Assembly: GCA_043228905.1 (NCBI GenBank)
Contig: JBHGNT010000009.1
Coordinates: forward strand, 744,001 to 808,000
DNA from: Azolla caroliniana
Taxonomy: Eukaryota > Plantae > Polypodiophyta
DNA: 64,000 bases
Direction: 5' to 3'
Under the pieces are notes generated by a model, which worked only from the letters and a program-made list of their open reading frames with translations, was not told the origin of the DNA and did not search any database. A program made the position numbers and the translations under genes. Of the stretch, positions 3,130 to 56,600 are shown in pieces. Positions within the stretch are counted from its first letter, which is position 1, and the number at the start of each line of letters is the position of its first letter.

Positions 3130-3950
3130 AAACAAAGAGTTAGTGTAAAAGTGTTGGCTTGACATCATAAAAGAATCTTGCTATCTTCTTGAATAGATAA
3201 TTCAAGTGTATAAACGTGATGATCAATGTCACACTAAAATTAGTGCTTTGCAACTATTTGATGCTTTACTTGATGTTGCATCATAAAAAAATTGTAATTT
3301 AGTTTACAATCATGCACACACGCTCGTGAATAAATGGCTTTACAACATCAATGATAATATTTAACCCAAACACGAGAAGTGAAAAAGACATCACCTTTTA
3401 AACTTGTATAGACTATTTCTATCAAGTATAATATATCAAAATTGCACATCATGTCATTCGGATGGCAATTTGCAACTGCCACCATTCCTTGACAAAAAGA
3501 CGTAATTAATATTGCCTTAGACTATAAATAATTTCAAATGACAACCTTGAACCCTAAATAGTGATGATTTTGTATGCACACCACTACTCTCACCAAACAT
3601 CCATTGTTAAAGCACGTTTACCATATAAACATCAAGGAAATATTTTCCTTGATAGATTGTATTCATTATCCCTCATGTGATACCCACAACTACATCAACT
3701 ACATCAGTCATCTCACATGGAGCCTTATTGTATTGTCCTCTCAAATGAACCTTTGTTCCATATATCCCTCTAATTACATTATAAGGGTCATGATCCCAAT
3801 GTTTTGGTTTACCCGTCCGTCAAGCTATTTGAGCAAATAAAACTATTCTCATGTCAACCAAAAGTCCAAATGCTAATCAAGGGAATAATAGAGAGTAAGA
3901 TGCATAAATTCTATGAACATTCAAATTTAGACATAATAGGTACTTGTGAA
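3130..3950 (-). mobile_element. Decayed Ty1/Copia RT-RNase H relic
   Basis: Minus strand at 3140-3250 resembles the Copia RNase H end (..DHH.Y....IQE....Q.....TL) and there is an EGYMEQ-like word near 3750-3770. Heavily mutated. Confidence 0.35.
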
Positions 3951-18260: not shown

Positions 18261-18330
18261 TTTGGTGTAATCAATCACAAGAAGATCTATATTGAACCAC
18301 ACCACACCTCACCTCCCAAGTGTGGTCTTG

Positions 18331-29265: not shown

Positions 29266-31283
29266 ATGGCCACTGTTAGCGCTGAAGAATATCAATCTGT
29301 TTTCTCGGAATTTCAATGCTTGAAAGAGAAGTTCCATGCTTTGGAACAAGAAAACCAACGGTTGTTGGGGGATCTTCAGCAAATCTCCTTCGAAAAGTAG
29401 CAAACGTAACAACAACATGGGGAACTTGCGTTACGCGTGCAACAACTCGAAGCAACCATCATAACGATGCAACAACAAGGGCGCGGAACACAAGGGATTC
29501 ATAAAGAACCCAAGATTGGCCTTCCCACGAAGTTCGATGGAACGCGATCGCAGTTTAGAGGGTTCCTTAACTAGGTACGATTAGTTATTCAAATGTATCC
29601 TTCCCAGTATCCCACCGATGCATCACGAGTGGGTTTAGTAGGCACTTTGTTAAGTGGCTCAGTGTTGGCATGGTTCGTTCCACTATTAGAAAAGGAATCC
29701 CCGTTACTCAACAATTTTGAAGAGTTTCTAGGTGAGTTTAAAGCATGTTTCAGAGATACTGACAGCATCAGGACCGCAATCAACAAAATTCGGCAATTAC
29801 GCCAAGGTGACCGTCTAGCCTCTGCATATGCTGCAGATTTTCGCCTACTCGTCGCCGATATCCCTTGGGATGATCAAGCGTTGATGGAGCAATTCCGTTA
29901 TGGTTTACGCTGTCGTGCCTTTCGGCTCCGGATCGTTGCGTGAGTCGGGTGGGAACCACAGAGGTCTTGGACTAGGAGAAAGAAGTTCGTGAGATAAAGA
30001 TTAATTATGAATAAATAGCGAAGAGAAAGATAAGAAACTCGTGAATCACACGAGTATACTATATTAATTGGTACTTAGGGTGTTAAGAGAGAAGTAGATG
30101 TATAAATCGTGAATCCCACGAATAATTTTTGTATTGATTAATACTTAATCCAAATAATCAACAACCCTTTATATATTTCTCTCCTCCTTATATAAGGAAG
30201 GAAGAGCTAAGCATGGCTTCATGCTTTTTTTTTTTTTTTTACAAAAAGTGTTCATGTCCACTAAAATGTGCATGTGATGCTTTTTTATTTCCTAAGTATA
30301 GGGCTCATGCACGCTAGATGTGCATGAGTTATTTTTAGTGTCTCGTGTTTTTCTTTTTCATATATTAAAAAAATACACGATTTACCTTTTAATAAAGGTA
30401 TGCATAAATAAAGGTCTTATACGTATTAAATCTATATTTAAAACACTTAAGATAAGTTAATGTAATGGTAAGGTTGGGGTTTGTCAACGTGGAGGTGCAG
30501 AGTTTGAATCACGCCCTGCGCAGTAGTGAGTATTTCCTTTCTTTTTACATTTATGTCTCTTTATCCGGCTCTTCCTTGCCGGTATGCCGTTTTCTTCCTT
30601 GCCGGTATGCCGTTTTCCTCCTTGCCAGTATGCCGTTTTCCCTCCTTGCCGGTATGCCGTTTTTCCTCCTTGCCGGTATGCCGTTTTCTTCCGGTTCTCA
30701 CCGAGCACTCCATTCTCTATCCGGAGGGACAAAAATATAATTTCCACATAGTGTGCAACCTACACTACGACAACGCAACGACGTCAAGGATTTACTCTTG
30801 ACCTTCCTCGAAGAGCCAAAGTCCTTAACAGAAGCAATCAGTCGCGCGGTGAGATGTGACAACCGCCTCTTTGAGCAACATTCGGAACGACAACTACAGA
30901 TGCCGAGGGCAAGATCAGAGCCCACCTACGCCTCAATGGTAGCAAGACCTTTTCCGAGGGAGTCATATAATGCGCCTCCAGCGAATACTCTGACTCCGAT
31001 GGAGATTGACACTACACGTCGTCGAGGGCCATTATCCGAAGAAGAAAAGCAGCGACGCCGTACAAATAGACTATGTCTTTACTGCGGTGGACCAAGACAT
31101 ATTGCAATAAATTGCCCCCATAGGCCAAGAAGACAGGTAAACCAAATAGTCGCTAGTTCTCATTGTACTAAACTCGAGCCTATTTCAGTAGGGATATCTG
31201 ATAGTCCTAAAAGTACTAATAGCCCAAATCTAGCAAACAGATTTGATGTCCTTAGTCAGTTAGAAGAAGAGTTAAACGACTAA
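29266..31283 (+). pseudogene. gag: Chromovirus gag (stops, split by solo LTR)
   Basis: MATVSAEEY..., LPTKFDGTRSQFRGFL, LRQGDR...YAADF, QFRYGLR | NDVKD (rejoins across 29911-30772), PMEID and CLYCGGPRHIAINC. Confidence 0.9.
29911..30772 (-). mobile_element. Solo LTR (862 bp) of the Trp-primed Gypsy family B, inserted in chromovirus gag
   Basis: Reverse complement of 47079-47940, with 4-bp TSD ACGC (29907-29910 / 30773-30776). Confidence 0.95.
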
Positions 31284-34200
31284 GTCCAGCCAAAATAGGA
31301 GCCGTTTGGTTGGACAACCCTAGATCTGTGCAACCCATTAGTGGTTCCATTCCCTCTAAGCAAGTTAGTGATGTGTTCGTAGCCCAAGTAATAGTTAGTA
31401 CTAAAAGTACCCCTCTAGTACATGTCCTAGCACTCCTAGATTCCGGAGCTAACTCTTGCTTTATGGATAAGAAATTTGCTCAAGCTCATAAGATATCCCT
31501 AAGAAAACTCCAGTGTCCAGCCTCTGTAGTAGTCATTGATGGACGTCCCATTGCTTCTGGAAATATCATAGAAGAGTCAGAGCCCATTAATATTGTCCTA
31601 GATAACTTAGCTTGTGTAGTATCATTTAATATTATTAGTATCCCAGAACATCCCATAGTTTTAGGATTACCGTGGTTTGAGTTACATAACCCAGACATAG
31701 ATTGGAGAACAAGAGAAATCCGGTGTCGACAAACCCAAGGGTCAACTCAGAAGATGGCAATCATTTCGCTACGTCAGTTGCGTAAAGAAGGGCACAAGGA
31801 GGAAATGTTCCTCTTTGCAATATCAATAAACCCCTCCAACACCACTAAAGAAGGATCCACCGTTCAACTTCCCGAGAAGTATTGTCATTACGCCGATGTG
31901 TTCGATAAAGTACAAGCCAACACACTTCCTCATCATCGACCGTACGATTGCCCCATCGATTTACAACCGGGAAAAGAGCCGCCATGGGGACCGATCTACA
32001 ATTTGTCACCAACCGAGTTGGAAGTCCTTCGGGCCTATATAGAGGAGAATTTGGAAAATGGTTTCATCTGACATTCGAAATCTCCAGATGGCGCATCCAT
32101 TTTCTTCGTCAAGAAAAATGATGGATCACTTTGTCTTGTTGTAGATTACCGTGGCCTGAATAAGGTTTTAATCAGGAATAGGTATGCTCTTCCCCTTATC
32201 TCAAGTCTTTTAGAACGGATCAATGGTGCCAGGTTCTTCACGAAGATCGACTTACGGGGAGCATATAACCTCGTACGGATCCAACCAGGAGACGAATGGA
32301 AGACCGCGTTTCGCACCAGATATGGGCACTTCGAGTATACGGTCATGCCGTTCGGCCTCACTAATGCACCGACAGTCTTCCAGCACATGGCTAATGATAT
32401 ATTCCGAGATCTATTGGATGATTGTTTGATCATCTATTTGGATGATCTACTGGTTTATTCAAAGACCCAAGAAGAACATGATTCTCATGTACTATTAGTA
32501 CTAAAACGACTTCGAGAACATGGTCTGTATGCAAAGCTGGAAAAATGTAGTTTCGGGTGCAACCAAGTGGAATTTCTCGGCTACATCATTTCGTCAGAAG
32601 GCATCTCCATGGACCCAGCTAAGGTCAAAACAGTGGTAGAATGGCAGACTCCACGTTTGGTGCGGGATGTGAAATGCTTCCTAGGCTTTGCCAATTTTTA
32701 CCGGAAGTTCATACAAGATTACTCAAAGATCGTTCTACCTCTCACACAACTTACCAGGAAGGGACAATCGTTCATTTGGTCTGAAGAAACGGACGTGGCT
32801 TTCGAGAGTCTTAAAAAGGCATTTACATCGGCTCCAATTCTAGCTCATGTCGATCCAGAAAAACCATTTATTATCGAAGCTGACGCATCGGATTTTGCAT
32901 TGGGGAGCATTCTGTCACAACAAGGGAATGATGAGAAGCTACATCCTGTGGCTTTTCACTCACGCAAGTTTGACGCCGCCGAAATCAATTACGAAATTCA
33001 TGATAAGGAGCTATTGGCAATAATGGATTCTTTTATGCAATGGAGGCATTTTCTGGAGGGATCCTCTCATCCGATCACCGTATTTAGTGACCACAAGAAC
33101 CTTGCCTACTTTCAGGATGCTCGTGTGTTGAATCAACGTCAAGCTCGGTGGGCCCACTTCCTCACGCGTTTCGACTTCAAAATTACATATCGTCCGGGGA
33201 AGCACCAAGGGAAGGCAGATGCATTATCACGACGTTCGTATCTAGCACCCCGTCCCAGCGAGCCAACTTTCGATAACCAAAAACAAGTCATCTTGGGACC
33301 GGCACGACTACAAGCAACAAAGATCTTTGTCATGCCCATGGATTCCCGCGTTATCGATACCATACGCGAAGACTTGAAGACAGATGCGTTCGCCCAAGCT
33401 ATACTAGCACAAATTGATCCCTCTCGAGCGTCGTGTTCACAGTCGCAACCACCAGGTACGGACTATCGGCAATTCAAATACCATGATGGATTACTCTTCT
33501 TTAAAGAACTTTTGTATGTTCCTAATGGTTCTTGCCGCCTTCAAGTAGTACAAAACTGTCATGACACATATATAGCTGGGCATTTTGGTAGTACTAAAAC
33601 ACTACATTTAGTACAACGATCATTCGGGTGGCCCTGTATGCGACAAGTTGTCGAGGATTTTGTTCGAACTTGTGATACATGCTGTAGAGCGAAAATGCCA
33701 AGGCATCATCCATATCGTTTATTAGAACCATTACCAATTCCAAGCAAGCCGTGGCAATCCATTGCTCTAGACTTCATCACAGATCTTCCAGTCTCTAAGG
33801 GGTTCAATGCGATTCTAACGGTGGTCGATCGATATACGAAGATGGCTCATTTCTTGCCATGTATTAAGGAGATCTCCAGTGAAGACACTGCCGAAATTGT
33901 CATGCGTGAAGTATGTCGGCATCATGGACTTCCCGATAGTATCATTAGCGACCATGGACCCCAATTCGTGTCAAAATTCTGGAACACCTTTTTAACATGC
34001 TCAAGGTCACTTGTAACCTCTCCTCCGGCTACCACCCACAAACCGACGGCCAAGCCGAACGAACCAATCAAACGCTGGAGCAGTATCTGCGGTGCTTTCT
34101 CAACTATCATCAGGATGACTGGGCAGATATTCTCCACTTCGCCGAATTTGCCTATAACAACTCTATCCACGCATCCAGGAAAGTTACGCCATTTTATGCT

Positions 34201-34866
34201 TATACGGGATGTCACCCCCGGTGGTGTGTACTTGAAACCCCAGAGGTGTCCACAAATCCTTGCGCAGAGGATCGTTTGGAGAAGTTACGCAAGATACAAG
34301 CGGATTTATCTACTCATCTCCAACAAGCTCAACAAACACACAAGGTTTATGCGGATCGTCATCGACTCCCATCTAGTTTTAACATTGGAGATCGGGTATG
34401 GCTACTCCGACGACACATCAAGACTACTCGCCCATGTGAGAAGTTGGATTATCGGCGATTAGGTCTTTTCCGTATTATCGGAAAGATTAATGATGTCGCT
34501 TTTCGTCTTGATCTACCTCCACAACTTCGGATACATCCGGTGTTTCATAGTTCTCTCCTCAAACCCTATCAAGAAAGCACCATCCCAGGACGTATTACAC
34601 AACCTCCACCCCCGATCGAGCTTGAAGATGGACCTGAGTACGAGGTTGCTGCCATCCTTGATTCCAAGCTTGTTCGCAACAAGCTCTACTATCTAGTCGA
34701 CTGGCTAGGATATAGTCCCAGCGAGCGTACTTGGGAACCGATAGAGAATGTCACCAATGCTCGTGCTCTTCTTGAAGACTTCCATCGTCAATATCCAGAC
34801 AAACCGGGTCCTCAATCCAAAACGACTCGTTACACTCGTCGTTTTAAAGGGGGGATAGTGTCATGA
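31271..34866 (+). pseudogene. pol: Chromovirus pol (PR, RT, RNase H, integrase, group I chromodomain)
   Basis: ALLDSGA; IYLDD; EADASD and DHKNL; H..GH...CDTC, LDF, SDHG, DGQAER; PEYEVAAILDS....YLVDWLGY....TWEP. TGA at 32069-32071 and a frameshift near 33990. Confidence 0.92.
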
Positions 34867-38334: not shown

Positions 38335-41300
38335 TGATGTGCAAAACAGCGCTCGGTCACAAACCGAGGAACAGGGTCGATTCACAGAAAACGGGAAATG
38401 CAAGAATGCACGAAGACAATAGAGAGAAGAGTACACTGGATGTTTTACGTGGAAAACCCTAAATGGGAAAAAAACCACGGGAGTCCTCAAACTCCAACTA
38501 TCACTAAAACAGAGATGTACAATGGCGAAGCTACAAGGCAACAACCTTGAGCTCACTATCTTCACCACAGGCGGCGGTAATACACAGAGGCAACGACCTC
38601 TTCGTCTCTCTCTCTCTCGGCTGCTCTCACTTCGCTCCCTCTTCGTGGAAAACAGAAAAATGAGCAACAACATAAAACTGTTTGCCCTAAGTCATATTTA
38701 TACATATATGACTTTCGGGCTATTTACAAATATAGCCTCAAGGGACCTTGGCAAACATATTCACAAATATGTCCCCGCATCCGGATCTCTCTCCGGGTAC
38801 ATACGTCATCCGGCTCGTAACCGGGGTCTTCAGCATCCGGCTCTGTAACCGGGGTCTTCATCATCCGGATCCGCAGCCGGGTACTCTTCATCCGGCTTCA
38901 TGCCGGGTACTCTTCATCATACGGTTCCGTAACAGCCTCCGGGCTTGCCTTCATTCATCTCCGGACATCCCATCCGGAGGGACCGAAATCCCAACAAGCT
39001 CCCCCTTCACTTCGGCATGGGATGTCTCTCCAACCCGATCCTCTTCCGGCATGCTTCCAGCTTGTCGGGTGTGAGCACCTTGGTCAGCATATCCGACCCG
39101 TTCTCGTCCGTGTGGATCTTCGTCAGCACGAACTCCTCGTCTTCTATCCTCTCCCGGATCCAGTGGTATCTACGCTGGATGTGTTTCGTCCGGGAATGGT
39201 AGGCCGCGTTCTTCGCAAGGTGGATGGCACTCTGACTGTCACAGTAGAGTCGGTACTCCTCTTGCCGGATACCGAGCTCTCTAATGAAGTCCTTCATCCA
39301 TATTATTTCCTTGCCTGCTTCAACAGCCGCCATGTACTCCGCCTCCGTGGTTGACAGCGCAACCATCTTCTGCAGCCTCGACTGCCACGAAACAGCTCCA
39401 CCTGCATACGTCATCACATACCCTGATGTGGACCGGCTGGTATCTGCATCAGCCGACATATCCGAATTGGTAAAGCCGTCGAGTTCGGGCTTACCGGAGC
39501 CGAATCGGAGGCACACGTTTGCCGTGCCCTTCAGGTATCGGAGTATCCACTTGACCACGTTCCAGTGCTCTTTGCCGGGGTTGCTCATGTACCGGCTCAC
39601 CACTCCAACTGCATATCCTATGTCCGGTCTTGTACACACCATAGCGTACATCAAGCTTCCGACGGCAGAGGCATATGCTACTTTCATCATGTCCTCCTTC
39701 TCAGCCTTTGTCTTGGGGCTTTGCTTGCTGGACAACTTGCAGTTTGCCGGTAGGGTTGACCCGACCGGTCTTGCTTCCAACATGTTAAACCGGTGAAGCA
39801 CCTTTGTCACGTACTTCTCCTGTGACAGCCACAACTGCTTCTTCTTCCGGTCCCGGATGATGTGCATCCCTAGTATTTGCCTCGCCGGACCCAGGTCCTT
39901 CATTGAGAAGGTTCGGTGAAGCGCTTTCTTCAGCATCCGTATCTTGACCTGGTCCCGTCCGACGATCAACATGTCGTCCACGTACAGGAGGAGTATTAGA
40001 GAGTCTCCTCCTTCGAACTTCTTCACAAACACGCAGTGATCAGACTGCGTTTTGTGGTACCCTTCGTCGGTCATGAAGGAGTCGAACTTCCGGTACCATT
40101 GCCGGGGAGCCTGCTTCAGTCCGTAAAGGCTCTTCTTCAACCGGCATACCAGGTGCTCCTTCCTTTTCTTCTCGAATCCTTCCGGTTGCTGCATGTAGAT
40201 CTCTTCGTCGAGGTCACCGTGAAGGAATGCCGTCTTCACGTCCATCTGTTCTACCTCGAGGTCCATACTTGCCGCTATGCTCAGCACCGTCCGGATGGAG
40301 GTCATCTTCACTATCGGGGCAAATATCTCGTCGAAGTCGACGCCCTTCTTCTGCTGGAACCCCTTCACCACGATCCTGGCTTTGTATCTCAGGGGGTTTT
40401 CGGCATCTCCCGGTTTCAGCTTGAACACCCACTTGTTTCGAAGTGCCCGCTTTCCTTTCGGCAACTCCACAAGTTCATATGTGTGGTTCTCATGCAGGGA
40501 ATCCATCTCCTCCTGCATGGCACTTAACCACCTGCGGCTATGGGTGTCAAGTTTTGCTTCTTCAAAACTCTCCGGCTCCCCCTCGTCGGTCAGCAGCACG
40601 TGCTCAGGTTCCGGAAATCTCCGGGGGGCCCTTCTCTCTCTTAGAGGATATCTCCGTTCCGGAGCTTCGGTAACCGGCTCCTCCGATTCCTCTTCATCCG
40701 AATCCATTTCGGGATCGGGGCCGGTTCCGGTATCAGTTTCATCTTCCTCGGCCGGTTTTGTTTCTTCACCGTCTTCGGCCGGATCCTCGAGTGCTAACCG
40801 GTCCCTTGCCGGTCGGGACTGCTCCTCGTAGAGTTGATTCTCACCGGTCGACTTGGAGCTCTTCATCTTCTTCTCCGACTCCCAGTCGGCGAGCGTCTTG
40901 TCCTCCATGAAGATGATATCTCGACTCCTGAATATCTTCTTGTCGACCGGGTCCCATACTCGGTAGCCGAACTCGTCGTCGCCGTAACCGAGGAATATGC
41001 ATGGCCGGGTCTTTGGATCTAGCTTTCCTCTCCGGTCCTTTGCCACATGCACATATGCGAGACACCCGAACACCTTCAGATGCCGGTAGGATACTTCCCT
41101 ACCGGTCCACACTCTCTGCGGCGTGTCTCTGTCCAAAGGTACTGAGGGTGATCTGTTTATCACGTATGTCGCCGTCGACATTGCCTCAGCCCAAAACCCC
41201 TTGGGCAATTTCGCATGCGCCAGCATACTCCGGACCCTCTCCATTTTGGTCCGGTTCATCCTCTCGGCCAGCCCGTTCAGTTCCGGCGTCTTCGGCACAG

Positions 41301-43773
41301 TAAACTCGAGCCGGATTCCCTTCGAGCGACAGTACTCCTCGAACTGCCCCCGGTATTCCCCTCCGTTATCCGCTCGTATCGCTTTCAGCTTCTTACCGGA
41401 TTCCCTTTCCACTCTCGCGTGGAGTTCTTTGAAGATGCACAACACTTGGTCCTTTGTCTTCAACGGTGCCGTCCACAGCTTCCGGCTATGGTCATCTATG
41501 AATGTTACGAAGTACTGGGCTCCGCCATGTGACTTCGTTTCTACCTGACACACATCAGTGTGTACCAACTCCAATGGTACACTACGTCTCATCGGTGGTC
41601 TTGAGCGGAAGGAGGTTCGGTTCTGCTTACCGGCCAGGCAATCGGTGCACTTCTCCAGATGCACATGCTTCACTGGAATAAGGTTGTCTTCTGCAAGCCT
41701 CTTCATCCCCTTCTCGCTCATGTGGCACAGTCTCTTGTGCCACAGCTCACCGGCAGTGTCAGCTGCCACGTTCAGCTCCTCCGGACATAGCCGAGAATTC
41801 ATCAGGTACAGTGTGTTGACCTTCCGGGCCCGAGCCACTATCAGGCTCCCTTTGCTGAACTTCATGACACCGTTCCGGATGCTACCCGTGTAGCCTTCAT
41901 CGTCTAGCCTCCCGGCCGAAATCAGGTTCAATCGAACCTCCGGAACGTGTCGAACATCCTTCAACAGCATCTTGCATCCGGTTGATGTCATCAGCCACAC
42001 GTCTCCTATGCCGGTAATCCGGCATGTACCTTCATTTCCCATCCGGACACAGCCGTGCTCACCGGCTGTGTAGGATGAGAAGTATTTCTTCTCCGGGGTC
42101 AGGTGGAACGACGCTCCGGAATCGACCACCCAGGTCATCTCTTCACCGGCAAGGTTCAGCTCCCTCTCTTCGGTAATGAGCATTATCTCTTCTTCACTTG
42201 CCGCGAGTGCCGTCGTTCCTTTCCGGTCCTGTCCTCGCCGATCCGGACCTCTCCGGTCCGTGGCTCCCCGGTATGCGCCGTTTCGCTCCGGTGACTTCTT
42301 CGAATCGGTGTCGTCGGCTCCGTTGTCTTTTCGGTAATGCCGACAATTCTTCCGGAAGTGCCCCGGCTTCCCACAGTGGAAGCATGTGGGCCTTCCTCTT
42401 GACTGCGACCGGGTCCCCGACTTCTCCCGTCTTTGCGGACTCCGGTTCCGTTGTCTTCCCCATTCCGATTCGGTAAGCAGCATCTTCGGATCGGAGGCCG
42501 GTTCTTTATCTCTCCGACGCGCTTCTTCGTTCAAAATACTTGTCTTTACCGTTTGTAGGGACAAGTTATCTTCGGTGCAGGAGGTGCTGAGAGTCACCAC
42601 CAAGTTCTCCCAGCTTTCCGGCAATGTACACATCAGGATGATGGCTTGCATTGCATCCTCCAACGGGAACTTGATCGCCGCAAGCTGGTTCACGAATCCC
42701 ATGAACGTGCTTACGTGTTCCACCATACTCTCGCCGTCCCGGTACTTGAGGTTCACTATCTTTCTCATCAGGGAGGTCCGGTTCAACGCATTCTTCCTCT
42801 CGTAGAGGCCCGACAGCTTCCGCCACATCTCATATGCGTTAGTGTCGTTCGCCACGTGTTGTAGAACGCTCACGTCGACGTATTGCCGAATGGTTGCAAC
42901 GGCTTTCCGGTTCAGAAGCCTCCATTCCGTCTCAAGTACCCCCTTGGGTATTTCCGACCTGTCGATCGGTTCATACAGGTCCCGAACAATGAGCAGATCC
43001 TCCATCTTTATCTTCCAGTCGGCATAGTTCTACGCATTCAGCACCATCATCCCCGGCTGCCCGCTGCTGCCGCCTTCCATTTTCTGTGTTACCGTGCTCT
43101 GATACCACTTTGATGTGCAAAACAGCGCTCGGTCACAAACCGAGGAACAGGGTCGATTCACAGAAAACGGGAAATGCAAGAATGCACGAAGACAATAGAG
43201 AGAAGAGTACACTGGATGTTTTACGTGGAAAACCCTAAATGGGAAAAAAACCACGGGAGTCCTCAAACTCCAACTATCACTAAAACAGAGATGTACAATG
43301 GCGAAGCTACAAGGCAACAACCTTGAGCTCACTATCTTCACCACAGGCGGCGGTAATACACAGAGGCAACGACCTCTTCGTCTCTCTCTCTCTCGGCTGC
43401 TCTCACTTCGCTCCCTCTTCGTGGAAAACAGAAAAATGAGCAACAACATAAAACTGTTTGCCCTAAGTCATATTTATACATATATGACTTTCGGGCTATT
43501 TACAAATATAGCCTCAAGGGCCCTTGGCAAACATATTCACAAATATGTCCCCGCATCCGGATCTCTCTCCGGGTACATACGTCATCCGGCTCCGTAACCG
43601 GGGTCTTCAGCATCCGGCTCCGTAACCGGGGTCTTCATCATCCGGATCCGCAACCGGGTACTCTTCATCCGGCTTCATGCCGGGTACTCTTCATCATACG
43701 GTTCCGTAACAGCCTCCGCGCTTGCCGTCATTCATCTCCGGACATCCCATCCGGAGGGACCGAAATCCCAACA
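38335..43773 (-). mobile_element. Full-length Ty1/Copia (Tnt1/Tork-like), young
   Basis: LTRs 43773-43111 and 38996-38335, TSD CGATC (38330-38334 / 43774-43778), tRNA-iMet PBS TGGTATCAGAGC (43107-43096), PPT gaagggggag. Confidence 0.97.
39007..43080 (-). CDS. Copia Gag-Pol polyprotein (one TAG at codon 17; remaining 1332-aa ORF open)
   Basis: CFHCGKPGHFRKNC, WVVDSGAS, WHKRLCH, HTD/DNGGEY/AER, MDVKTAFL, YVDD, AEY and YCDSQSA. TAG at 43032-43030. Confidence 0.93.
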
Positions 43774-46700: not shown

Positions 46701-47162
46701 TATGGTACAAGTCTTCTTCCGTACTGTACATTTGTGGGGTTGTTCCCGGGTGTCCGGACTATCGCGGCCCCACGCCTTGATAGCCCTCTCTAAAAATCCC
46801 CTCGGGTTTTGCTGCCGAGGGCCTCGCGGTTACGCTCGTGGTTTGGTCGCACCGTTAGGAACTGGACCGAGTGACGCCCGTCTTGGCTCTTGACTCTTGC
46901 ATAGGCTGAACCGTTGTCCAACACCTTGGTCTCCATCCGTGCCGCCGTGATATATGGCTCTCCTAGTATAACCGGATGCGAGGACGTCTCTTGCACGAAG
47001 AAGTGCTGGTCGATCTCGACATCGCCGATTTTCACCTGTACGTTCGGACAGGCCCCATGTAGTTCTTCCGTGGCGCGCTGTCGTAGTGTAGGTTGCACAC
47101 TATGTGGAAATTATATTTTTGTCCCTCCGGATAGAGAATGGAGTGCTCGGTGAGAACCGGAA

Positions 47163-47280
47163 GAAAACGGCATACCGGCAAGGAGGAAAAACGGCATACC
47201 GGCAAGGAGGGAAAACGGCATACCGGCAAGGAGGAAAACGGCATACCGGCAAGGAAGAAAACGGCATACCGGCAAGGAAG
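47163..47280 (+). repeat. 24-25-bp tandem repeat in family B U3
   Basis: GAAAACGGCATACCGGCAAGGA.. occurs 5 times here and in the solo LTR, 4 times in the 3' LTR (~53683-53775). Confidence 0.92.
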
Positions 47281-47944
47281 AGCCGGATAAAGAGACATAA
47301 ATGTAAAAAGAAAGGAAATACTCACTACTGCGCAGGGCGTGATTCAAACTCTGCACCTCCACGTTGACAAACCCCAACCTTACCATTACATTAACTTATC
47401 TTAAGTGTTTTAAATATAGATTTAATACGTATAAGACCTTTATTTATGCATACCTTTATTAAAAGGTAAATCGTGTATTTTTTTAATATATGAAAAAGAA
47501 AAACACGAGACACTAAAAATAACTCATGCACATCTAGCATGCATGAGCCCTATACTTAGGAAATAAAAAAGCATCACATGCACATTTTAGTGGACATGAA
47601 CACTTTTTGTAAAAAAAAAAAAGAAAGCATGAAGCCATGCTTAGCTCTTCCTTCCTTATATAAGGAGGAGAGAAATATATAAAGGGTTGTTGATTATTTG
47701 GATTAAGTATTAATCAATACAAAAATTATTCGTGGGATTCACGATTTATACATCTACTTCTCTCTTAACACCCTAAGTACCAATTAATATAGTATACTCG
47801 TGTGATTCACGAGTTTCTTATCTTTCTCTTCGCTATTTATTCATAATTAATCTTTATCTCACGAACTTCTTTCTCCTAGTCCAAGACCTCTGTGGTTCCC
47901 ACCCGACTCACGCAACGATCCGGAGCCGAAAGGCACGACACAGT

Positions 47945-47962
47945 TGGTGAACCCGACGTGAA
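47945..47962 (+). promoter_or_regulatory. Primer binding site complementary to the tRNA-Trp(CCA) 3' end
   Basis: TGGTGAACCCGACGTGAA is the reverse complement of ..TTCACGTCGGGTTCACCA, the plant cytosolic tRNA-Trp 3' end as I recall it. Confidence 0.85.
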
Positions 47963-47978
47963 AACGGGTGGCAAGGAG

Positions 47979-50009
47979 ATGGAGGCTCAACAAGCTAACA
48001 ATATGATGGCGATGTTCGAACGGATGCTTCAAGAACAACGCACGATGTCGGAGATTTCGGCATCAGTAGAGCGGCTCGTGCAACGCAACGGGCAATTTAA
48101 TGGTAAGGATGTGTCGCGATATTTGCAGGACTACAAGGCGGAGATGCTCCGGTGCCGGGCTTCGGAAGGACTGCAAGTGACATCCTTTAACCGGGTGGCG
48201 ACCGACGGGCTTCAAGGGAGTATCCACGGGTTACAAAATCCGACGTGGGAAGCATTCGAAGAGGCGTTAAAGACCACGTTTGCCATCGAGGACTCCTCCA
48301 AGGCAACACGGAGGGGATTCGAGGATTGGGTGGAAACGTCAGGTAAGGGGCTGAAGGTCCTCGAAGTGTTTTCGACATTCGAAAGTCGGTTCGGGAGGTT
48401 GTCCGCGAGAGATCAAACTATTCTTGCACCGGACAAAGTCATCATGTTTTTGCGAGCTGTGGACGTCCGGGACCGGAAAGATCTCGGAGTGCTTCTTGAG
48501 GACACGACCACCGAAAGCGGCCTCACCGAAACATGGGAAAGCGTGCGGGATATCGTCGCGCGGTACACGAAGAGGGGGCAATGGCTTGCCAACGAAGAAA
48601 AGAGGGTTTCGGAACCGATTCCGAAACCGAGAACGGGACTGGAAGACCATCAACCGAGGGCTCGGGAGATTACGGCCGAGAAGGGAGTCGACGCGTCTAC
48701 GGTGGAGCAGCTGCTGAAGGAGATGGAGAATCTAAAGATCGCGATGGTGAAGAAGTCGGATGACCGCCCCACAAGCTCCAAATATACGGATCGACGGTGC
48801 ATATGGTGCGATAGCGCCGAACACGATCGGAGGGATTGCGACGACCATAAGGAGGCGCTACGACGGGATCTCATCTACTACGAGGGAAACCGGATTCATT
48901 CGATGGACTCTCGGAAGCCACTCCGACCGAACTTCCGGAAAGGCGGCATGAAGAAGGTGCTCGAGGAGGAGTTAGCGGCAAGAAGCAACTATGCAACAAC
49001 CGCGGGAATATGTGTCGGGGAGTCATCGGGAGCGAAGGCGTCTTTCTGGCCGGAGGTGCTAGGAAACACCGAGAAAACCGACTCCAACGATATCCGAAAC
49101 ACCGCGGAAGGCGTCCGGGAAGCTACGGGATGGGAGTGCCCTGTCGACAAGAATAGCATATACGCCCTGTGTCAATTACATGAGGTGTATGTGGACGAGA
49201 AACGACGGCGCACGGAGGATGCGGCCGGACCATCGAAGATACCGGAAAGCTGGAACTCCGGAGGTAAGGGAAAAGAAAAGGCGACTCCGGCATTCAAGCT
49301 CGCCTCGGACATAGAACAACAAACCGACTTGAAAAGAGTGTTCGAGGAAAGAATCTTGGATAGCCGGGTAGATTTTTCGTTGCGGGAACTACTCGGAATA
49401 GCGAAGAAGGAGTTTCACGATCTTCTCGTGGATCTCGTGAAAAGGAAGAGACAAAGTACGGAGGAAAATGCTCCAAGGGTGAATGCAAATACCGTTTCAA
49501 CGAACGACACCGAAGTGGAAGGCGAAATTCCGAACTCCCACTATACAAGGCCACACTGGGCCCGTGCGACTACGGAGACTCCGGTCCGAATCGGCAACAT
49601 CAAAGAACCCGTGCTAGCATTGATTGATCACGGATCGGAGATCAACTTGATGTCCGAGTTCTACCGAAAGGGGAAGTGGCCTATAAACACCAACCATGGA
49701 TGGAAGATTCGGGCAGCCACGAAAACGACAGAAGACCTATTTGCGGCTTGTCCGGATGTGACGGTAAAGATCGGGGATGTCGAAATTGACCAAAATTTCT
49801 TTGTGCAGGATGAGGTTTCACATTCTGTCATCCTCGGCCAACCCTTTATCACGGCTTCACGGATGGAGACGAAGGTGCTCGATAGTGGTGTGGCTTTTGC
49901 GCGAATTCGGAGCCAAAACGGAGGGAAATCCGTCCAATTCCTAACGGTGCCGGCAAATCACGAAAGGAACAAGAGGGAACTCTTGCCCCAAGTGAGAATG
50001 GATTTTTAA
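47979..50009 (+). CDS. gag: Gag-protease ORF of family B (~676 aa)
   Basis: FNGKDVSRYL, zinc knuckle CIWCDSAEHDRRDC, aspartic protease ALIDHGSEIN...VILGQPF, all before the stop. Confidence 0.9.
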   Translation: MEAQQANNMMAMFERMLQEQRTMSEISASVERLVQRNGQFNGKDVSRYLQDYKAEMLRCRASEGLQVTSFNRVATDGLQGSIHGLQNPTWEAFEEALKTTFAIEDSSKATRRGFEDWVETSGKGLKVLEVFSTFESRFGRLSARDQTILAPDKVIMFLRAVDVRDRKDLGVLLEDTTTESGLTETWESVRDIVARYTKRGQWLANEEKRVSEPIPKPRTGLEDHQPRAREITAEKGVDASTVEQLLKEMENLKIAMVKKSDDRPTSSKYTDRRCIWCDSAEHDRRDCDDHKEALRRDLIYYEGNRIHSMDSRKPLRPNFRKGGMKKVLEEELAARSNYATTAGICVGESSGAKASFWPEVLGNTEKTDSNDIRNTAEGVREATGWECPVDKNSIYALCQLHEVYVDEKRRRTEDAAGPSKIPESWNSGGKGKEKATPAFKLASDIEQQTDLKRVFEERILDSRVDFSLRELLGIAKKEFHDLLVDLVKRKRQSTEENAPRVNANTVSTNDTEVEGEIPNSHYTRPHWARATTETPVRIGNIKEPVLALIDHGSEINLMSEFYRKGKWPINTNHGWKIRAATKTTEDLFAACPDVTVKIGDVEIDQNFFVQDEVSHSVILGQPFITASRMETKVLDSGVAFARIRSQNGGKSVQFLTVPANHERNKRELLPQVRMDF

Positions 50010-53000
50010 AGCAGACTGTTGTGGAGTGGGGAAGTGATAGTCCGAGAAGCCCTGATACCCCACACAGGAAGAAAACTCTCGGAGCAAAACAAGTACGAAT
50101 CGGCCCGGATGGGGCATCTACGTACACGGCCGTAACCGGAGGAATGAAGAAACAATACCGACAAGTGGAGGATAAGTTACGGTCGGCATCAATAATAAAA
50201 GAAGACGAAGAAATCGTGGGAGTGATCGAGGAAGTGTTCTATGGGAATACACTACAACGGCTTGAAGAGCTTGCGAAAGATAAAAGCCAAGGGAACCGGG
50301 TAGTCCCGGTGGAATCGGTCGAGATGTACGAGATCGTTGCGAAAATGGGGCCGGATGCGCTCCGCAAAGAAGAAGCAATGGTAAGTACGAAATACAAGAC
50401 TGTGGAGAAGAAGGTGAAACCGGCCGCGGGACCACTACCCGCCGATAGCGAACAAAAGAGGAAAGAAGTCTCGGGAGATCCGACACTTCGGAAGACCGTG
50501 GATATCGGACATGCCTTCACAGATGAGACCCGGAAGAAACTTCGGATCGGTGGAGGTGGGTTCCTCTTACAAGAAGAAGAAAAACGGTTTCGAGAGATGT
50601 TGGAGCAACACGGCAAAGCATTCGCGTTCACATCGAGGGAGATCGGATGCATTGATCCAAAGATAGTGGAGCCGATGGTGATCTTCACGATTGATCATGT
50701 ACCGTGGAACCTGAAGCCGATTCCGGTGCCACGGGCGCATATTCCGAAAGTCATCGACTTGCTCAAGGAGAAGGTGGCGATGGGGATTCTAGAGCCATCA
50801 AGTGCTCCGTACTCAAATCGATGGTTTACGGTTCCGAAGAAGAATGGGTCACTCCGATTCATCCAAGACTTGCAACCGGTGAACAAGGTCACGATCCGGA
50901 ACTCGGGAGTCGGTCCGATAGTGGATGAATTCGCGGAAGCTTTTGCCGGACGTGCGATATACTCCATCGGGGACCTATACTCGGGGTATGACCAATTCCA
51001 ACTAGCCGTGGAGAGCCGAGACATCACTACCATGCGGACACCGATAGGACTAGTTCGAATGTGCACACTACCACAAGGAGCGACAAACTCGGTTGCACAT
51101 ATGATGAACGCGATGAACAAGGTGCTTCGAGATTGCATCCCGGAGATAACGATGCCGTTTCTAGATGACATTCCGATGAAAGGATGCGCGGTGGAAGAAA
51201 AAGATGAGACTATGGATGATCGGGGATGCCGAAAGTTCGTGGTCGACCATATTCATGATTGCGAGAAAGTGTTGCGAAAGCTAGAAGATGTGCACCTAAC
51301 ACTTTCCGGGGAGAAATCGGCATTCGGGCAAGAAGAAATATTGGTGGTCGGACATCTATGTGGACCCTACGGCCGAAGACCGTCACCAACAAAGATCGAT
51401 GCGATTCAAGCTATGAAGGAAGTTTGTGAGTCAACATCGGAAGTTCGAAGGTTTCTGGGTGCGTGTGCATTCTATCACATATGGATTCCGCACTATGCAC
51501 ATATAGCGGACCCGCTCTATCACTTGTTGCGGAAAGGTAAGAAATTTGAGTGGAAACCGGAACACACTAAAGCCATGAGGAAGCTCAAGAAGACACTATG
51601 GAGGGCGGAATCACTTAAGAAGCCAAGCTACGAGCGGCCAATCATAGTAACGGTTGATACAAGTCCAACCGGTATCGGGTGGGTCATCAATCAAGCCGAC
51701 TCGGATGGTTCGCGGTATCCGATCCGATTTGGAGCAAAGGTCCTCAACGAAAGGCAACGCGGATATGCACAAGTCAAAAGAGAATTGTGGGGAGTCGTGT
51801 CGGCGATAAAATCGGATCGGGATTATTTGATCGGAGCTGAAGTGGTGATCGAGACGGATTGTCTTCCGATACTCGGGATGATGCGGTGTTGTACGATACC
51901 GGATGTGGCTATGCTAAGGTGGATTGCATATGTCAAGTCACTTAATCCGGAGGTTCGACACATCTCGGGGAAGGACAACGCGGTAGCGGACATGTTATCG
52001 AGGGCGCGGTTTGAAGACGACATAACCGAATCAGATAATGAAGAAGTTTCCGAAGACTACTTCACGTCAGAACACATATGCCGAGTGAACGTGATCCGAG
52101 AATTCCGGGAAGAAGAATACGAGGGGGAAACCTTGATGATCGGGAAGATGCTACAAGAGGTCGAGGATTCAACCAATGATAAAGAAAGGAGAGCCGAGAT
52201 CCGAAGGAAGAAGAGGCAAGTCCAAAAGTTCTTCTTGGAAAACGGTTTAATATGGAGGACGCCGAAAAGACCGGATGGGATACCACTTCGAGTAGTCGGG
52301 ACGAAAGAGCAACGAAACCGGATAATGTCCGAGTTCCACGAATCCGATTGGGCTGGACATCGAGGAACATGGGCAACTTTTGTGAAAATCAAGCAAAGAT
52401 ATTGGTGGAAGAACATGTATAAAGATGTCGCGGAGTTCACAGAAAGCTGCGAGAAATGTCAAGTCTACTCCGGGGTCCGACACCGAGATGAGCTGCATCC
52501 GACATTCTCACCGACAATCAACTTCAAGTGGATGGTCGACATTGTAGCTATGCCGACCGGGATTGGACAAAAGAAATACTTGGTGTTAGCTCGAGAAGAT
52601 CTCACAAACCAAGTTGAAGGTCGAGCGCTTCGGAGGAAAACGTGTGCCGCGGTGTGCCAATTTCTTTTGGAAGAAGTGTTTTGTAGGTACGGCTGCGTAG
52701 GACAAGTGATTGCGGACCGGGGAGAACTCGACTCGGACAAAGCTAGGGGATTCTTCGCCAAACATGGAGTTCGGTTAACGTTGACAACGGCCTACAATCC
52801 GGAGGCCAACGGGAAGATCAAACGAGGACATAGTCCGATCGTGAAAGCACTTGCGAAGGCATGCGACGGAAGGGTGAAGGATTGGCCACAAATGCTTCCG
52901 TATGCACTATGGGCGGATCGGACGACGCATAGCTCCGTGACCGGTTACATGCCGGCAGAACTCATGACCGGACAAGCACCGGTAATGCCAACGGAAACCG

Positions 53001-53611
53001 CAATCGCGACATGGACAATACTACCGTGGAAGGAAGAGATGAGCCGGGAAGAACTACTAGCGGTCCGGATACGACAACTGGAGGGAAGACCGAAAGATGT
53101 AGCAGAAGCGTCACGCCGACAACAAGAAGCACGGTTCCGGAACAAAAGCCGGTTCGACACAAAGCACCGACTACGACCGAGGAGGATTGAAGAAGGAGAT
53201 TGGGTGATCGTCTATGATAGTAGCTTGGACCATCAACATACAACGATGCGGAAATTCGCGAAAAGGTGGTTCGGGCCGTACGAGGTTCGGAAGGTCTTCG
53301 ACAACGGGACGTACCGACTGTCCGAGTTGGATGGAACAATACTACGAGTGCCTATAGCCGGGAAGCGGGTGAAGATTTTCAAGAAGCGGACCGACGACAA
53401 ACCTTATGTGATCCAAGTCGAGGCCGACAACGAGGAGCAATCGGACGAAGACCACAATGATGCGGGAAGCGAAGAAAGTGGATTACAACTCATAATCGAC
53501 ATAAGGGGAGAATCGGAGGAAGCTTCGGATGAAGACGGATACGAAGAATCAAGAACTTCGGCACATACCGGAGGATGTGCGGGTTTGGAGGGGGCGAGTG
53601 TCGTAGTGTAG
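50000..53611 (+). CDS. pol: RT-RNase H-integrase ORF of family B (-1 frame relative to gag-PR)
   Basis: DLYSGYDQF, LPQGATNS, PFLDD, VDTS..ELW..ETDC..NAVADMLSR, HESDWAGH..CEKC, VD..ADRG..NGKIKRGH and a GPY motif; no chromodomain. Confidence 0.92.
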   Translation, partial: GFLKQTVVEWGSDSPRSPDTPHRKKTLGAKQVRIGPDGASTYTAVTGGMKKQYRQVEDKLRSASIIKEDEEIVGVIEEVFYGNTLQRLEELAKDKSQGNRVVPVESVEMYEIVAKMGPDALRKEEAMVSTKYKTVEKKVKPAAGPLPADSEQKRKEVSGDPTLRKTVDIGHAFTDETRKKLRIGGGGFLLQEEEKRFREMLEQHGKAFAFTSREIGCIDPKIVEPMVIFTIDHVPWNLKPIPVPRAHIPKVIDLLKEKVAMGILEPSSAPYSNRWFTVPKKNGSLRFIQDLQPVNKVTIRNSGVGPIVDEFAEAFAGRAIYSIGDLYSGYDQFQLAVESRDITTMRTPIGLVRMCTLPQGATNSVAHMMNAMNKVLRDCIPEITMPFLDDIPMKGCAVEEKDETMDDRGCRKFVVDHIHDCEKVLRKLEDVHLTLSGEKSAFGQEEILVVGHLCGPYGRRPSPTKIDAIQAMKEVCESTSEVRRFLGACAFYHIWIPHYAHIADPLYHLLRKGKKFEWKPEHTKAMRKLKKTLWRAESLKKPSYERPIIVTVDTSPTGIGWVINQADSDGSRYPIRFGAKVLNERQRGYAQVKRELWGVVSAIKSDRDYLIGAEVVIETDCLPILGMMRCCTIPDVAMLRWIAYVKSLNPEVRHISGKDNAVADMLSRARFEDDITESDNEEVSEDYFTSEHICRVNVIREFREEEYEGETLMIGKMLQEVEDSTNDKERRAEIRRKKRQVQKFFLENGLIWRTPKRPDGIPLRVVGTKEQRNRIMSEFHESDWAGHRGTWATFVKIKQRYWWKNMYKDVAEFTESCEKCQVYSGVRHRDELHPTFSPTINFKWMVDIVAMPTGIGQKKYLVLAREDLTNQVEGRALRRKTCAAVCQFLLEEVFCRYGCVGQVIADRGELDSDKARGFFAKHGVRLTLTTAYNPEANGKIKRGHSPIVKALAKACDGRVKDWPQMLPYALWADRTTHSSVTGYMPAELMTGQAPVMPTETAIATWTILPWKEEMSREELLAVRIRQLEGRPKDVAEASRRQQEARFRNKSRFDTKHRLRPRRIEEGDWVIVYDSSLDHQHTTMRKFAKRWFGPYEVRKVFDNGTYRLSELDGTILRVPIAGKRVKIFKKRTDDKPYVIQVEADNEEQSDEDHNDAGSEESGLQLIIDIRGESEEASDEDGYEESRTSAHTGGCAGLEGASVVV

Positions 53612-56600
53612 GTTGCACACTATGTGGAAATTATATTTTTGTCCCTCCGGATAGAGAATGGAGTGCTCGGTGAGAACCGGAAGAAAACGGCATACCGGCA
53701 AGGAGGGAAAACGGCATACCGGCAAGGAGGAAAACGGCATACCGGCAAGGAAGAAAACGGCATACCGGCAAGGAAGAGCCGGATAAAGAGACATAAATGT
53801 AAAAAGAAAGGAAATACTCACTACTGCGCAGGGCGTGATTCAAACTCTGCACCTCCACGTTGAAAAACCCCAACCTTACCATTACATTAACTTATCTTAA
53901 GTGTTTTAAATATAGATTTAATACATATAAGACCTTTATTTATGCATACCTTTATTAAAAGGTAAATCGTGTATTTTTTTAATATATGAAAAAGAAAAAC
54001 ACGAGACACTAAAAATAACTCATGCACATCTAGCGTGCATGAGCCCTATACTTAGGAAATAAAAAAGCATCACATGCACATTTTAGTGGACATGAACACT
54101 TTTTGTAAAAAAAAAAAAAAAGCATGAAGCCATGCTTAGCTCTTCCTTCCTTATATAAGGAGGAGAGAAATATATAAAGGGTTGTTGATTATTTGGATTA
54201 AGTATTAATCAATACAAAAATTATTCGTGGGATTCACGATTTATACATCTACTTCTCTCTTAACACCCTAAGTACCAATTAATATAGTATACTCGTGTGA
54301 TTCACGAGTTTCTTATCTTTCTCTTCGCTATTTATTCATAATTAATCTTTATCTCACGAACTTCTTTCTCCTAGTCCAAGACCTCTGTGGTTCCCACCCG
54401 ACTCACGCAACGATCCGGAGCTGAAAGGCACGACAACGTAGTCCATTCCGACGTACGGGGACCGGCACAGACGGCTACATTCGGCGGATGCCGATATTAC
54501 GTGCTCTTCATCGACGACTTCTCTAGGCACACTTGGATTTACCCAATGCGGCAAAAGAGCGAAGTGTTCGGACACTTCCAAAACATTCAAGAATGAAGTC
54601 GAGAAAGCCACGGGCCGACATGTATGTTGTCTTCAATCGGACGGCGGCAAGGAGTACTTCTCAAACGATTTCACGGCGTATCTCCGAAAGGAAGGAATTC
54701 GGCGAGAATTCACTTGCCAACACACTCCGTAACAAAACGGGGTAGCCAAGCACAAAAATCAGCACATCCTCGAAGTAGCGCAGGCCATGATGAACGAGAA
54801 GCATATGCCCAAGTCATATTGGGCCAAAGCTGCAAATACGACCATCTACCTAATGAACCGGTGTACAACATCCGGCGTGCACAAGGTCACTCCGCATGAA
54901 AAATACTTCAAAAAGAAGCCAGACTTATCACACACCCGAATATTTGGGGCGATAGCGTACGTGCACATCCCTGACGAGAAGCGTCAAAAGCTTGACCTGA
55001 AATCAGAGAAATGTATCCTCGTAGGATACTCATTGGAGCAAAAGGGGTACAAGTGCTACAACCCATCAACTCGAAAATCTCGAGTAAGTCGAGACGTCGT
55101 ATTTGACGAATCTGCATCCTGGTACGCACCAAAGACAACTTCGACTCTGACTCCGACTCCGCTCAACCCGGAATCCGCCGAACAAGAGGTAGAGGATGAA
55201 GATCGCCTTACGCGCATTTTCGAAGAAAGTCCGATCACGACCCGACTGAGCGGACCACAAGAGCCTTTGAGCGATCAAAGCGCATCACGACCTAGCCCGA
55301 AGATGGACAAAGGCAAGGCGAAAATGTCGGAATACGAAGACGATCGCTTCGATGACGATGAGTCGACTCACTCACTCGACAGTGAGTTCGGTGGCTTCGA
55401 TGTACCAATTGGAGCTAAGAAAGCCCTCATCTCTGCAAATGAAAAGCTTTGTCTCTCCACCCGTGAAAAGAATCCGGTCAGCCGATTCGGCTACAACGAC
55501 TACATGGCATATCACTATGCCTTTATGATGAAGGTGGCGATAGTACGCGAGCCAGAAAAATTCTCCGAAGTAGCCAAGGATCTGCGATGGATCGAAGCCA
55601 TGAACGAGGAGATGCATGCACTACGCAAGAACAAGATGTGGGATCTCGTTCCCACCTCACCACACAAAAAGGAGATCGGATGCAGATGGATTTACAAAGT
55701 GAAGTACAACGTTGGCGGTTCTGTCAACCGCTACAAAGCGCGACTCGTAGCGAAAGGCTACGCCCAAACGGACGGAGTTGACTACAAGGAAACCTTTTCC
55801 CCGGTGGCAAAGATGACGATGGTACAGACCGTAATTGCGCTTGCCGCGGCGAATGGGTGGCACCTCCATCAAATGGACGTCAAGAACACCTTTCTACAAG
55901 GCGAATTAGAAGAGGAGGTGTACATGATACAACCACCCGGCTTCAACTCGAGCACCCATCCGAAAGCTGTATGCTGACTCAAGAAGCCACTCTACAGCCT
56001 CAAACAAGCACCACCTGCTTGGCATTCGAAGATAACGCAATATCTTCATCACATCGGCTTCCGCATGTCAAAATCAGACAACTCTCTCTACATACGAAGC
56101 AATTCCGCAAGTCCGATCGTCATCATCTTATATGTGGATGACCTAGTCATTGGAGGTGAGCATCTCGTCGAAATCAAGAAGGTTAAAACCCTCCTTTCCG
56201 ACAAGTTCAAGATGACGGACATGAAGAAGCTCCACTACTTCCTCGGCATCGAGGTAATTCGGACTCCGGCCGGAATCATGATCTCTCAACGGCACTACAT
56301 CCTCAACTTGTTATGGGTGAAAGCATGAGAGTGGAAACAATTAGCTATGTCCTTGACATAGCTAATTAGCTATGCAAAAAGCTACCATTGATAAATAGTC
56401 ATTTTAGTAAAAGCCATCATTAATAAATTAACTATGCAAAAAACTACCATTGAAAATACTAGAGTGTTTTAATTACATATGTAAATGAGTGCCATAAATG
56501 TGCAACATAAACATGCAACATAAATTGATATGTGCACCATAAATGTGTACCATAAATTATATATCGAATTCCTAGGTCCATTATGCATGATCCTTTGCCA

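Follow-up and report, generated by a model that had tools for sequence, protein, structure and literature searches.

How ribosomes reach the reverse transcriptase (RT) of a long terminal repeat (LTR) retrotransposon whose first open reading frame (ORF) closes soon after the protease is the question raised by a locus of the fern Azolla caroliniana. The window, by which we mean the whole 64,000-nucleotide (nt) stretch analysed (contig JBHGNT010000009.1, positions 744,001 to 808,000), contains a Ty3/gypsy element, element A (47079-54435, plus strand, 7,357 bp), and a copy of a second family, element C, on the minus strand. ORF1 of element A ends with a protease-like domain and its pol frame contains RT, RNase H and integrase without a protease, and therefore the frame break falls between protease and RT. 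Comparison of copies and relatives makes it highly likely that this junction carries the programmed -1 frameshift signal of a Phygy-like Ty3/gypsy element, consisting of a slippery heptamer and a covarying stem (S1) located 6 nt further on, likely as part of an H-type pseudoknot. We observed a two-frame layout, conservation of the heptamer at the nucleotide level, a spacer of fixed length, compensatory changes that keep S1 paired, and a linker that is open in the -1 frame; the signal is real, conserved and very probably functional.

Reading frames, slippery site and spacer

The standard parts of a -1 frameshift signal are a heptamer, a spacer of 5-9 nt and a downstream structure (PMC5382211; what is taken from this and the other cited papers refers to the portions of each that were available). 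In element A, ORF1 ends ATG GAT TTT TAA and the pol frame is open through the site; the heptamer lies in the 0 frame before the stop, the downstream -1 ORF is open across it, and the structure begins within 5-9 nt. The initial annotation, made from the letters of the window, had placed G_GAT_TTT_TAA at 50000-50009 with the -1 frame open into pol, and G_GAT_TTT_TAG at 46799-46790 on the minus strand in element C, and both placements are right. The -1 peptides that it regarded as the same in the two elements are alike without being identical, with 7 of 14 residues shared. Its further proposal, a -1 layout after the protease, proved to be the rule across copies. For each of families A and C, the 30 best of 150 scored genomic loci were used. 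Pol was at -1 in 28 of the 30 loci for family A (the others being one at +1 and one without an RT match) and in 25 of the 30 for family C (the others being two at +1, one in frame 0 with the stop still after DF, and two without an RT match). The opposite arrangement, with ORF1 and pol in a single frame in most intact copies, was thus not found. From 80 metagenome loci, 73 had a protease end and a stop, and 58 of these had an RT match; of the 58, pol was at -1 in 55, with no stop between heptamer and RT, at +1 in three and in frame 0 in none. Readthrough of the stop codon was rejected on this last count. In addition, a pattern of 31 places (heptamer, 6-nt spacer, 5' arm of S1, and GGG) was searched in the 523-Mb genome with the reversed pattern as the control, which gave 3,868 genomic sites versus 0 in the control. 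When the spacer was set at 7 nt, where the extra base would fuse the frames, there were 8 genomic sites versus 6 in the control, and seven of these eight had an additional T in the T-run. Damage to a single copy was rejected as the origin of the layout, which holds in both families, in the metagenome loci and at 3,868 versus 8 sites.

The junction itself was compared in 124 usable loci out of 133, which were collapsed to 33 families at 88% identity and aligned without gaps across the signal. The nine loci that were dropped represented contig ends, nearby indels or stops, truncations, and a single copy in which the first base had changed; the heptamer finder required a slippery pattern, and only this one clear failure was among the nine. 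The heptamers were GGAUUUU in 25 families, GGAUUUC in 3, GGGUUUU in 2, GGUUUUU in 2 and GGUUUUC in 1. The base before GAU, which is a third codon position, was G in 33/33 families after 14 different codons, compared with a background of 21-66% for third-position G depending on the amino acid. Judged from this alignment, the heptamer is conserved at the nucleotide level, as RNA. The stop follows immediately in 24 families (UAG in 11, UAA in 9, UGA in 4), 3 nt later in three, 15 nt later in five, and 132 nt later in one copy. The transframe peptide in the -1 frame is not kept in distant families; because it diverges while the pairing described below stays, the constraint acts on the RNA, and conservation driven by this peptide was rejected. 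No Rfam family was found at E up to 5 in 49900-50200. Two related families (L114:2483-2577 and L108:2821-2915) have G_GUU_UUU with a 5-nt spacer, a -1 frame shut within 2-7 codons and RT at +1; these are either decayed copies or elements with a different route to RT.

The domains on the two sides of the junction were identified with different degrees of certainty. ORF1 contains a capsid-like domain (approximately residues 45-240), a Cys/His zinc-knuckle-like motif, DUF4100 and an aspartic-protease-like domain (approximately residues 565-690). In an AlphaFold model built from a 34-sequence alignment (mean predicted local distance difference test score 63.5), a wide structural search with the capsid part matched retroelement capsids, including Arc, MOAP1 and the Rous sarcoma virus (RSV) capsid, at Z 7.6-8.7, values that are middling for helical domains yet consistent over many capsids. 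The C-terminal domain, which is all-beta, gave weak Foldseek matches to the retropepsins of DDI1 and xenotropic murine leukemia virus-related virus (E 0.16-0.25, probability 0.69-0.92); the whole ORF1 model gave no Foldseek match at E<=0.001, and profile searching against PDB sequences yielded no useful match. Pfam matched Asp_protease_2 to ORF1 at E 0.015 and found protease matches in 9 of the 34 aligned members, the ESM Atlas returned aspartic-protease clusters with scores of 0.94-0.95, and more distant homologs gave stronger matches (E 1.7e-6 to 3e-4) that pass or come near the Pfam cut-offs. These consistent signals point weakly to a retropepsin fold and family for the end of ORF1. Its motif, D-H-G, is at residues 583-585 (around window positions 49626-49634), and distant relatives have S, T, N, A, G, Y or P in place of the H. 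A domain scan of pol found RT, RNase H and integrase, and neither a protease nor a chromodomain in element A; P0002 contained a single stretch of RNase H; the linker from the shift site to RT is about 120-125 codons.

The same protein end recurs among relatives. Among the 120 ORF1 homologs listed of 192 found, the C-terminus is DF in 62, GF in 2 and NF in 2, and 23 end in PL or PF, many of these with DF or GF five residues earlier. Named proteins with DF at the C-terminus are those of Riccia (P0058, P0088, P0112) and Physcomitrium (P0119), and those with DF five residues before the end are from Physcomitrium (P0006, P0054, P0078, P0087) and Adiantum (P0086). Among distant representatives at the 50% level with a protease motif, 28 had a full tail (10 others were left out for a short tail): 8 end in D, G or N followed by F, 5 have DF five residues before the end and 15 end otherwise. 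A search for longer forms, in which protease and RT are fused, gave 22 matches, all of them eukaryotic gene models (21 from Riccia and 1 from Physcomitrium). In the Riccia models P0161-P0182 the point of fusion differs from model to model, and those models that could be read lack the peptide encoded by the stem; as judged from the proteins, they probably contain predicted introns that bridge the shift site. A frameshift at the junction would explain the apparent introns that gene finders place there.

The downstream stems and competing explanations

S1 begins 6 nt after the heptamer (5 nt in 2 of the 33 families). Across the families, 92.6% of its cells are paired, compared with 23-44% for slid controls, with two-sided changes in seven of the nine pairs, and RNAalifold recovered eight of the nine unaided. 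The covariation check proposed in the initial annotation was run on a tree of the protease region and gave 18 co-changes for S1, versus 6.2±2.0 for matched unpaired columns (0/20000 draws); the support for the second stem, S2, was weaker. In copy A, S1 is weakened because its first base is A, whereas G is found there in 28 of 30 copies of family A, and its folding energy is -4.8 as against -11.6 kcal/mol. Folding of single sequences gave no significant result for copy A, with z of -0.6 to -1.3 (+0.9 over 101 nt), and a modest one for copy C, with z of -1.2 to -2.4; the structural evidence is comparative. On that evidence, S1 is the best-supported element of the predicted stimulator, and a well-supported one.

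The initial annotation had found GTGGGG and CCCCAC downstream of the heptamer in both elements, where they do occur, and had noted that they could form a stem. They would form a second helix, S2, which is less well supported, while the principal stem S1 had been missed. The 5' strand of S2 lies in the loop of S1 and its partner 11-18 nt beyond S1, so that the two helices cross and an H-type pseudoknot is predicted. In 29 of the 33 families the energy of S2 is -5 kcal/mol or lower. Pairing of the two strands from the same family gave -8.9 kcal/mol, compared with -6.6±0.4 kcal/mol for strands from different families (0/20000 swaps; relatedness not controlled). In one fixed register, 73% of cells are paired and 18 are two-sided, versus 7.2 in shuffled alignments, with a second peak at +2. 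S2 therefore probably forms together with S1 as an H-type pseudoknot, as far as sequence comparison can indicate. It is unlikely, though still a serious candidate, that the same frameshift is stimulated by the S1 hairpin alone and that S2 is incidental or an alternative fold. The varying register and weaker covariation of S2 would fit this, as would the single-sequence fold of copy A, which takes other pairings. However, the loop and the 3' segment match family by family, as the swaps showed, several families have A-U for G-C swaps in S2, and in three copies for which S1 was folded by itself the energy was no better than -4.8 to -17 kcal/mol.

Several results weigh against a conserved, pseudoknot-stimulated shift after an active protease. 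The stems are also protein-coding in the -1 frame. S2 beat all 23 control windows in only 17 of the 33 families, and its register varies, L3 being 14 nt in 16/33 families and 16 nt in 10/33. Two count-of-pairs measures for S2 were not above shuffles (124/500 and 141/500). Compact H-type pseudoknots do not usually have an L2 of 3 nt. For ORF1 itself the protease assignment is weak, by the Pfam and Foldseek values given above, and the motif is D-H-G, not D-[ST]-G, in 114 of 120 homologs. The choice of the 30 best of 150 genomic loci favours intact copies. Most metagenome loci come from one record series, which includes 99%-identical copies of the window's own family, so that host diversity is narrower than 33 families suggest; these families represent much element diversity and few hosts. 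Finally, a single open frame spans protease and RT in P0209 (1374 aa, one member), a distant relative, and thus the signal is not universal in the wider clade. Beyond its protease, P0209 retains DF at roughly the usual spacing.

Three explanations without a ribosomal shift are disfavoured by the comparisons. It is very unlikely that splicing of the kind known from Ogre removes the region of the ORF1 stop and joins gag-pro to pol, the stems being splicing or packaging signals. Ogre does splice between GAG-PROT and RT (PMC6317226), the fused gene models from Riccia and Physcomitrium join protease to RT, and in some families a U-run followed by AG resembles a splice acceptor. However, in the 15 nt that precede the heptamer no single position has GT in more than 5/33 families, and within the spacer none has AG in more than 12/33. 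The -1 frame is open from heptamer to RT in nearly all metagenome loci with an RT match, whereas the other two frames of 26 linkers, which had been chosen as open, hold 209 and 285 stops in 3,285 codons. The varied joins of the readable fused models, and their omission of the stem-encoded peptide, are what gene-finder introns placed over a frameshift would be expected to look like. Expression of pol from an AUG within the linker, by re-initiation or by internal initiation, appears highly improbable. In 20 of 26 families there is a Met some 20 codons ahead of the KYKT motif, but it is absent in the other 6, and the first Met in the -1 frame can be anywhere from codon 1 to 109; moreover, such initiation leaves unexplained the heptamer, the constant spacer length and the fact that the frame is already open upstream of the Met. 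We give the least credence of all to slippage of RNA polymerase or of reverse transcription at the T-run, or to chance indels in dead copies. The genomic sites with one extra base, nearly all with the extra T in the run, are of the type expected from slippage, but they are rare (8 versus 3,868), the run has only five T and is shorter or interrupted in the GGAUUUC families, and covarying stems at a ribosome-spacer distance are not predicted by it.

With a programmed -1 shift, tRNA-Asp and tRNA-Phe would slip in tandem from GAU UUU to GGA UUU, and S1, likely within the pseudoknot, would make a fraction of the ribosomes shift into the RT-RNase H-integrase frame. The transframe product of copy A would read ...RMDF and then LKQTVV.... 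Most ribosomes would end at the adjacent UAA, UAG or UGA, so that the Gag-protease product would be abundant and the Gag-protease-RT-RNase H-integrase product scarce, with the D-H-G domain as the active protease. G_GAU_UUU is non-canonical at the P site. It is a tested shift site of pea enation mosaic virus 2 (PEMV2), in which changes in the U-run abolish shifting and a nearby stop helps (PMC4737148).

Known frameshift systems and the lineage of the element

The initial annotation had compared the layout with the gag-pro/pol arrangement of alpharetroviruses, and the comparison is borne out. The heptamer of RSV is A_AAU_UUA, compared with G_GAU_UUU in the element. In RSV and avian leukosis virus (ALV), Gag and protease share one frame and a single -1 shift leads into pol, the "0/-1" pattern (PMC1224870), and a pseudoknot stimulator has been reported for RSV (PMC12789967). 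The element differs from RSV and ALV in its plant host and Ty3/gypsy lineage, in the linker of about 120 codons before RT and in its predicted pseudoknot, which is compact (about 50 nt). No env was found in element A, in which pol runs into the 3' LTR and leaves no room for one. Because RSV shares the 0/-1 pattern, the element resembles alpharetroviruses in how this step works but does not belong to that group, and the common layout is most simply explained by convergence.

The closest parallels for the heptamer are in plant RNA viruses. Umbraviruses (pea enation mosaic virus and four others) have G_GAU_UUU, with the stop at the site or 3 nt after it and a 5-nt spacer, and they use plant ribosomes (PMC4737148). 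The initial annotation had attributed GGAUUUU to dianthoviruses; the heptamer was confirmed for umbraviruses, and for the dianthovirus RCNMV (red clover necrotic mosaic virus) the available text describes a -1 shift with an adjacent stop and does not print the heptamer. GGGUUUU, the heptamer of barley yellow dwarf virus (BYDV), is also the one in 2 of the 33 element families. PEMV2, RCNMV and BYDV differ from the element in that they use a bulged stem-loop and a long-range interaction with the 3' region (PMC5382211, PMC4737148); in the element a local crossing helix is predicted, nearer to the H-type class of poleroviruses, and the product is RT-integrase and not an RNA-dependent RNA polymerase.

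The element resembles Phygy, a non-chromovirus Ty3/gypsy lineage of Physcomitrium patens, in its primer binding site (PBS) for tRNA-Trp, its 4-bp NCGN target site and the lack of any detected chromodomain or aRH. Like Phygy, it is short, with coding sequence filling the interior, and its closest named homologs include P. patens proteins. A tRNA-Trp PBS was reported for 81% of Phygy (Neumann et al. 2019, PMC6317226). The NCGN duplication is seen at a solo LTR of the same family in the window (29911-30772, minus strand, 99.5% like the 5' LTR of element A), which has GCGT on both sides. Element A is slightly smaller than the 7,656-9,968 bp given for Phygy, a range that comes from another species, P. 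patens. Relatives of the element reach Riccia and Adiantum, beyond the P. patens of Phygy; its proteins have their closest named homologs in Physcomitrium patens, Riccia sorocarpa and Adiantum nelumboides. The PBS, the target site, the domain content and the similarity to P. patens proteins fit a putative assignment as Phygy-like. Fungal look-alike proteins came from the ESM Atlas alone, and IMG/VR contained no relative of the element.

The coding organisation of Phygy is given as "ND" in the 2019 survey (supplementary file 3), and in the portion available this survey lists no plant lineage with an overlap between GAG-PROT and RT; the overlaps of Tcn1 and Selgy come before the protease (PMC6317226). 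Ogre and Retand of the Tat clade are alike in that the polyprotein breaks after the protease, but in Ogre the break is an intronic spacer or a stop, in Retand there is a single in-frame stop, and neither is listed as an overlap (PMC6317226). PEG10, PNMA3 and insect gypsy combine a heptamer with a pseudoknot in genes derived from Ty3/gypsy (PMC5009743), but their hosts are animals, unlike that of the element, and the shift precedes the protease, which is in the shifted frame (for PEG10, PMC7212762). For plants, a 2016 review states that a 2003 survey (Gao et al.) gave only +1 cases, which it calls puzzles (PMC5009743), and a 2025 review of plant LTR retrotransposons, in its available portion, names frameshifting only in general (PMC12786077). 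The signal is not described in the available portions of PMC7466625, PMC3248453, PMC11963269, PMC8310308 and PMC12789967. Our literature search, with subscription papers, Repbase, GyDB and bioRxiv supplements outside its scope, found no description of the signal or the layout in plant retrotransposons. The class of mechanism is well known, and its position after the protease, the predicted pseudoknot and the host group, retrotransposons of non-seed plants, appear undescribed.

We consider it reasonably likely, though less firmly than the presence of the signal itself, that an old Ty3/gypsy clade of non-seed plants (mosses, liverworts and ferns, fungi too having similar-looking proteins) gains access to RT through a -1 shift that is stimulated by a pseudoknot and placed after the protease. 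This would be the first such case in plant retrotransposons, one genome alone having about 4,000 sites. Its layout would have converged on that of alpharetroviruses and its heptamer on that of plant RNA viruses, and an unusual D-H-G protease would be made at the level of Gag. The Gag:Pol ratio of plant LTR retrotransposons is mostly known from splicing, and a defined, short, covarying signal can be tested in plant extracts. Such a signal would be a diagnostic mark for the lineage and would provide an endogenous substrate for -1 frameshifting in bryophytes, with which one could ask whether frame maintenance is a means by which hosts restrain transposons. If a protease with a D-H-G motif is made in the same amount as Gag, the question also arises of how premature maturation of particles is avoided.

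Element A and its surroundings

The features of element A and the corresponding signal in element C are given in Table 1. The PBS comprises a 15-nt match to a genomic tRNA-Trp gene plus TGG, and the stop codon of pol is located just within the 3' LTR.

Table 1. Coordinates of the features of element A and of the signal in element C, in positions of the window
Feature	Position	Strand	Details
5' LTR, element A	47079..47940	+	TG...CA ends, 862 bp; GCGC just upstream
Primer binding site, element A	47945..47962	+	18-nt complement of the tRNA-Trp(CCA) 3' end, CCA tail included
ORF1, element A	47880..50009	+	stop to stop, 709 aa, C-terminal MDF*
Pol frame, element A	49886..53611	+	-1 relative to ORF1; RT, RNase H, integrase
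Slippery heptamer G GAU UUU, element A	50000..50006	+	ORF1 stop UAA directly after, 50007-50009
Spacer, element A	50007..50012	+	6 nt; 6 nt in 31/33 families, 5 nt in 2/33
Stem S1, element A	50013..50043	+	50013-50021 with 50035-50043, 9 bp
Predicted stem S2 (GTGGGG/CCCCAC), element A	50026..50063	+	50026-50031 with 50058-50063; crosses S1; L1 4, L2 3, L3 14 nt
Polypurine tract, element A	53587..53598	+	
3' LTR, element A	53599..54435	+	ACGT just downstream
Signal in element C	46734..46799	-	heptamer 46799-46793, stop TAG; S1 46786-78/46764-56; S2 46773-68/46739-34

The region is a nest of LTR elements, in which element A sits in the protease region of element C. The gag part of element C was not found beyond element A, and element C is decayed, with its -1 frame shut after 93 codons and pol spread over three frames. 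It is interrupted a second time by a copia element at 38335-43773 (minus strand), which sits in its integrase and has a 1,340-aa open frame and LTRs that are 99.1% alike. The flanks of element A (GCGC at 47075-47078 and ACGT at 54436-54439) are mismatched, although both are NCGN, and its own LTRs are 96.6% alike; element A may be a recombinant of two insertions from which the DNA between them was lost. Elsewhere in the window there are a Ty3/gypsy element bearing a chromodomain (30741-34866, plus strand), with protease, RT, RNase H, integrase and Chromo in several frames, and a host-like gene with an FAD_binding_4 domain (16334-18308, minus strand). In the genome, matches to the tRNA-Trp 3' end are clustered at G000:C8:17796786-17823371, where they are about 1.2 kb apart, and at G000:C16:4989495-5105657, which suggests tandem arrays of tRNA-Trp, the primer of this lineage.

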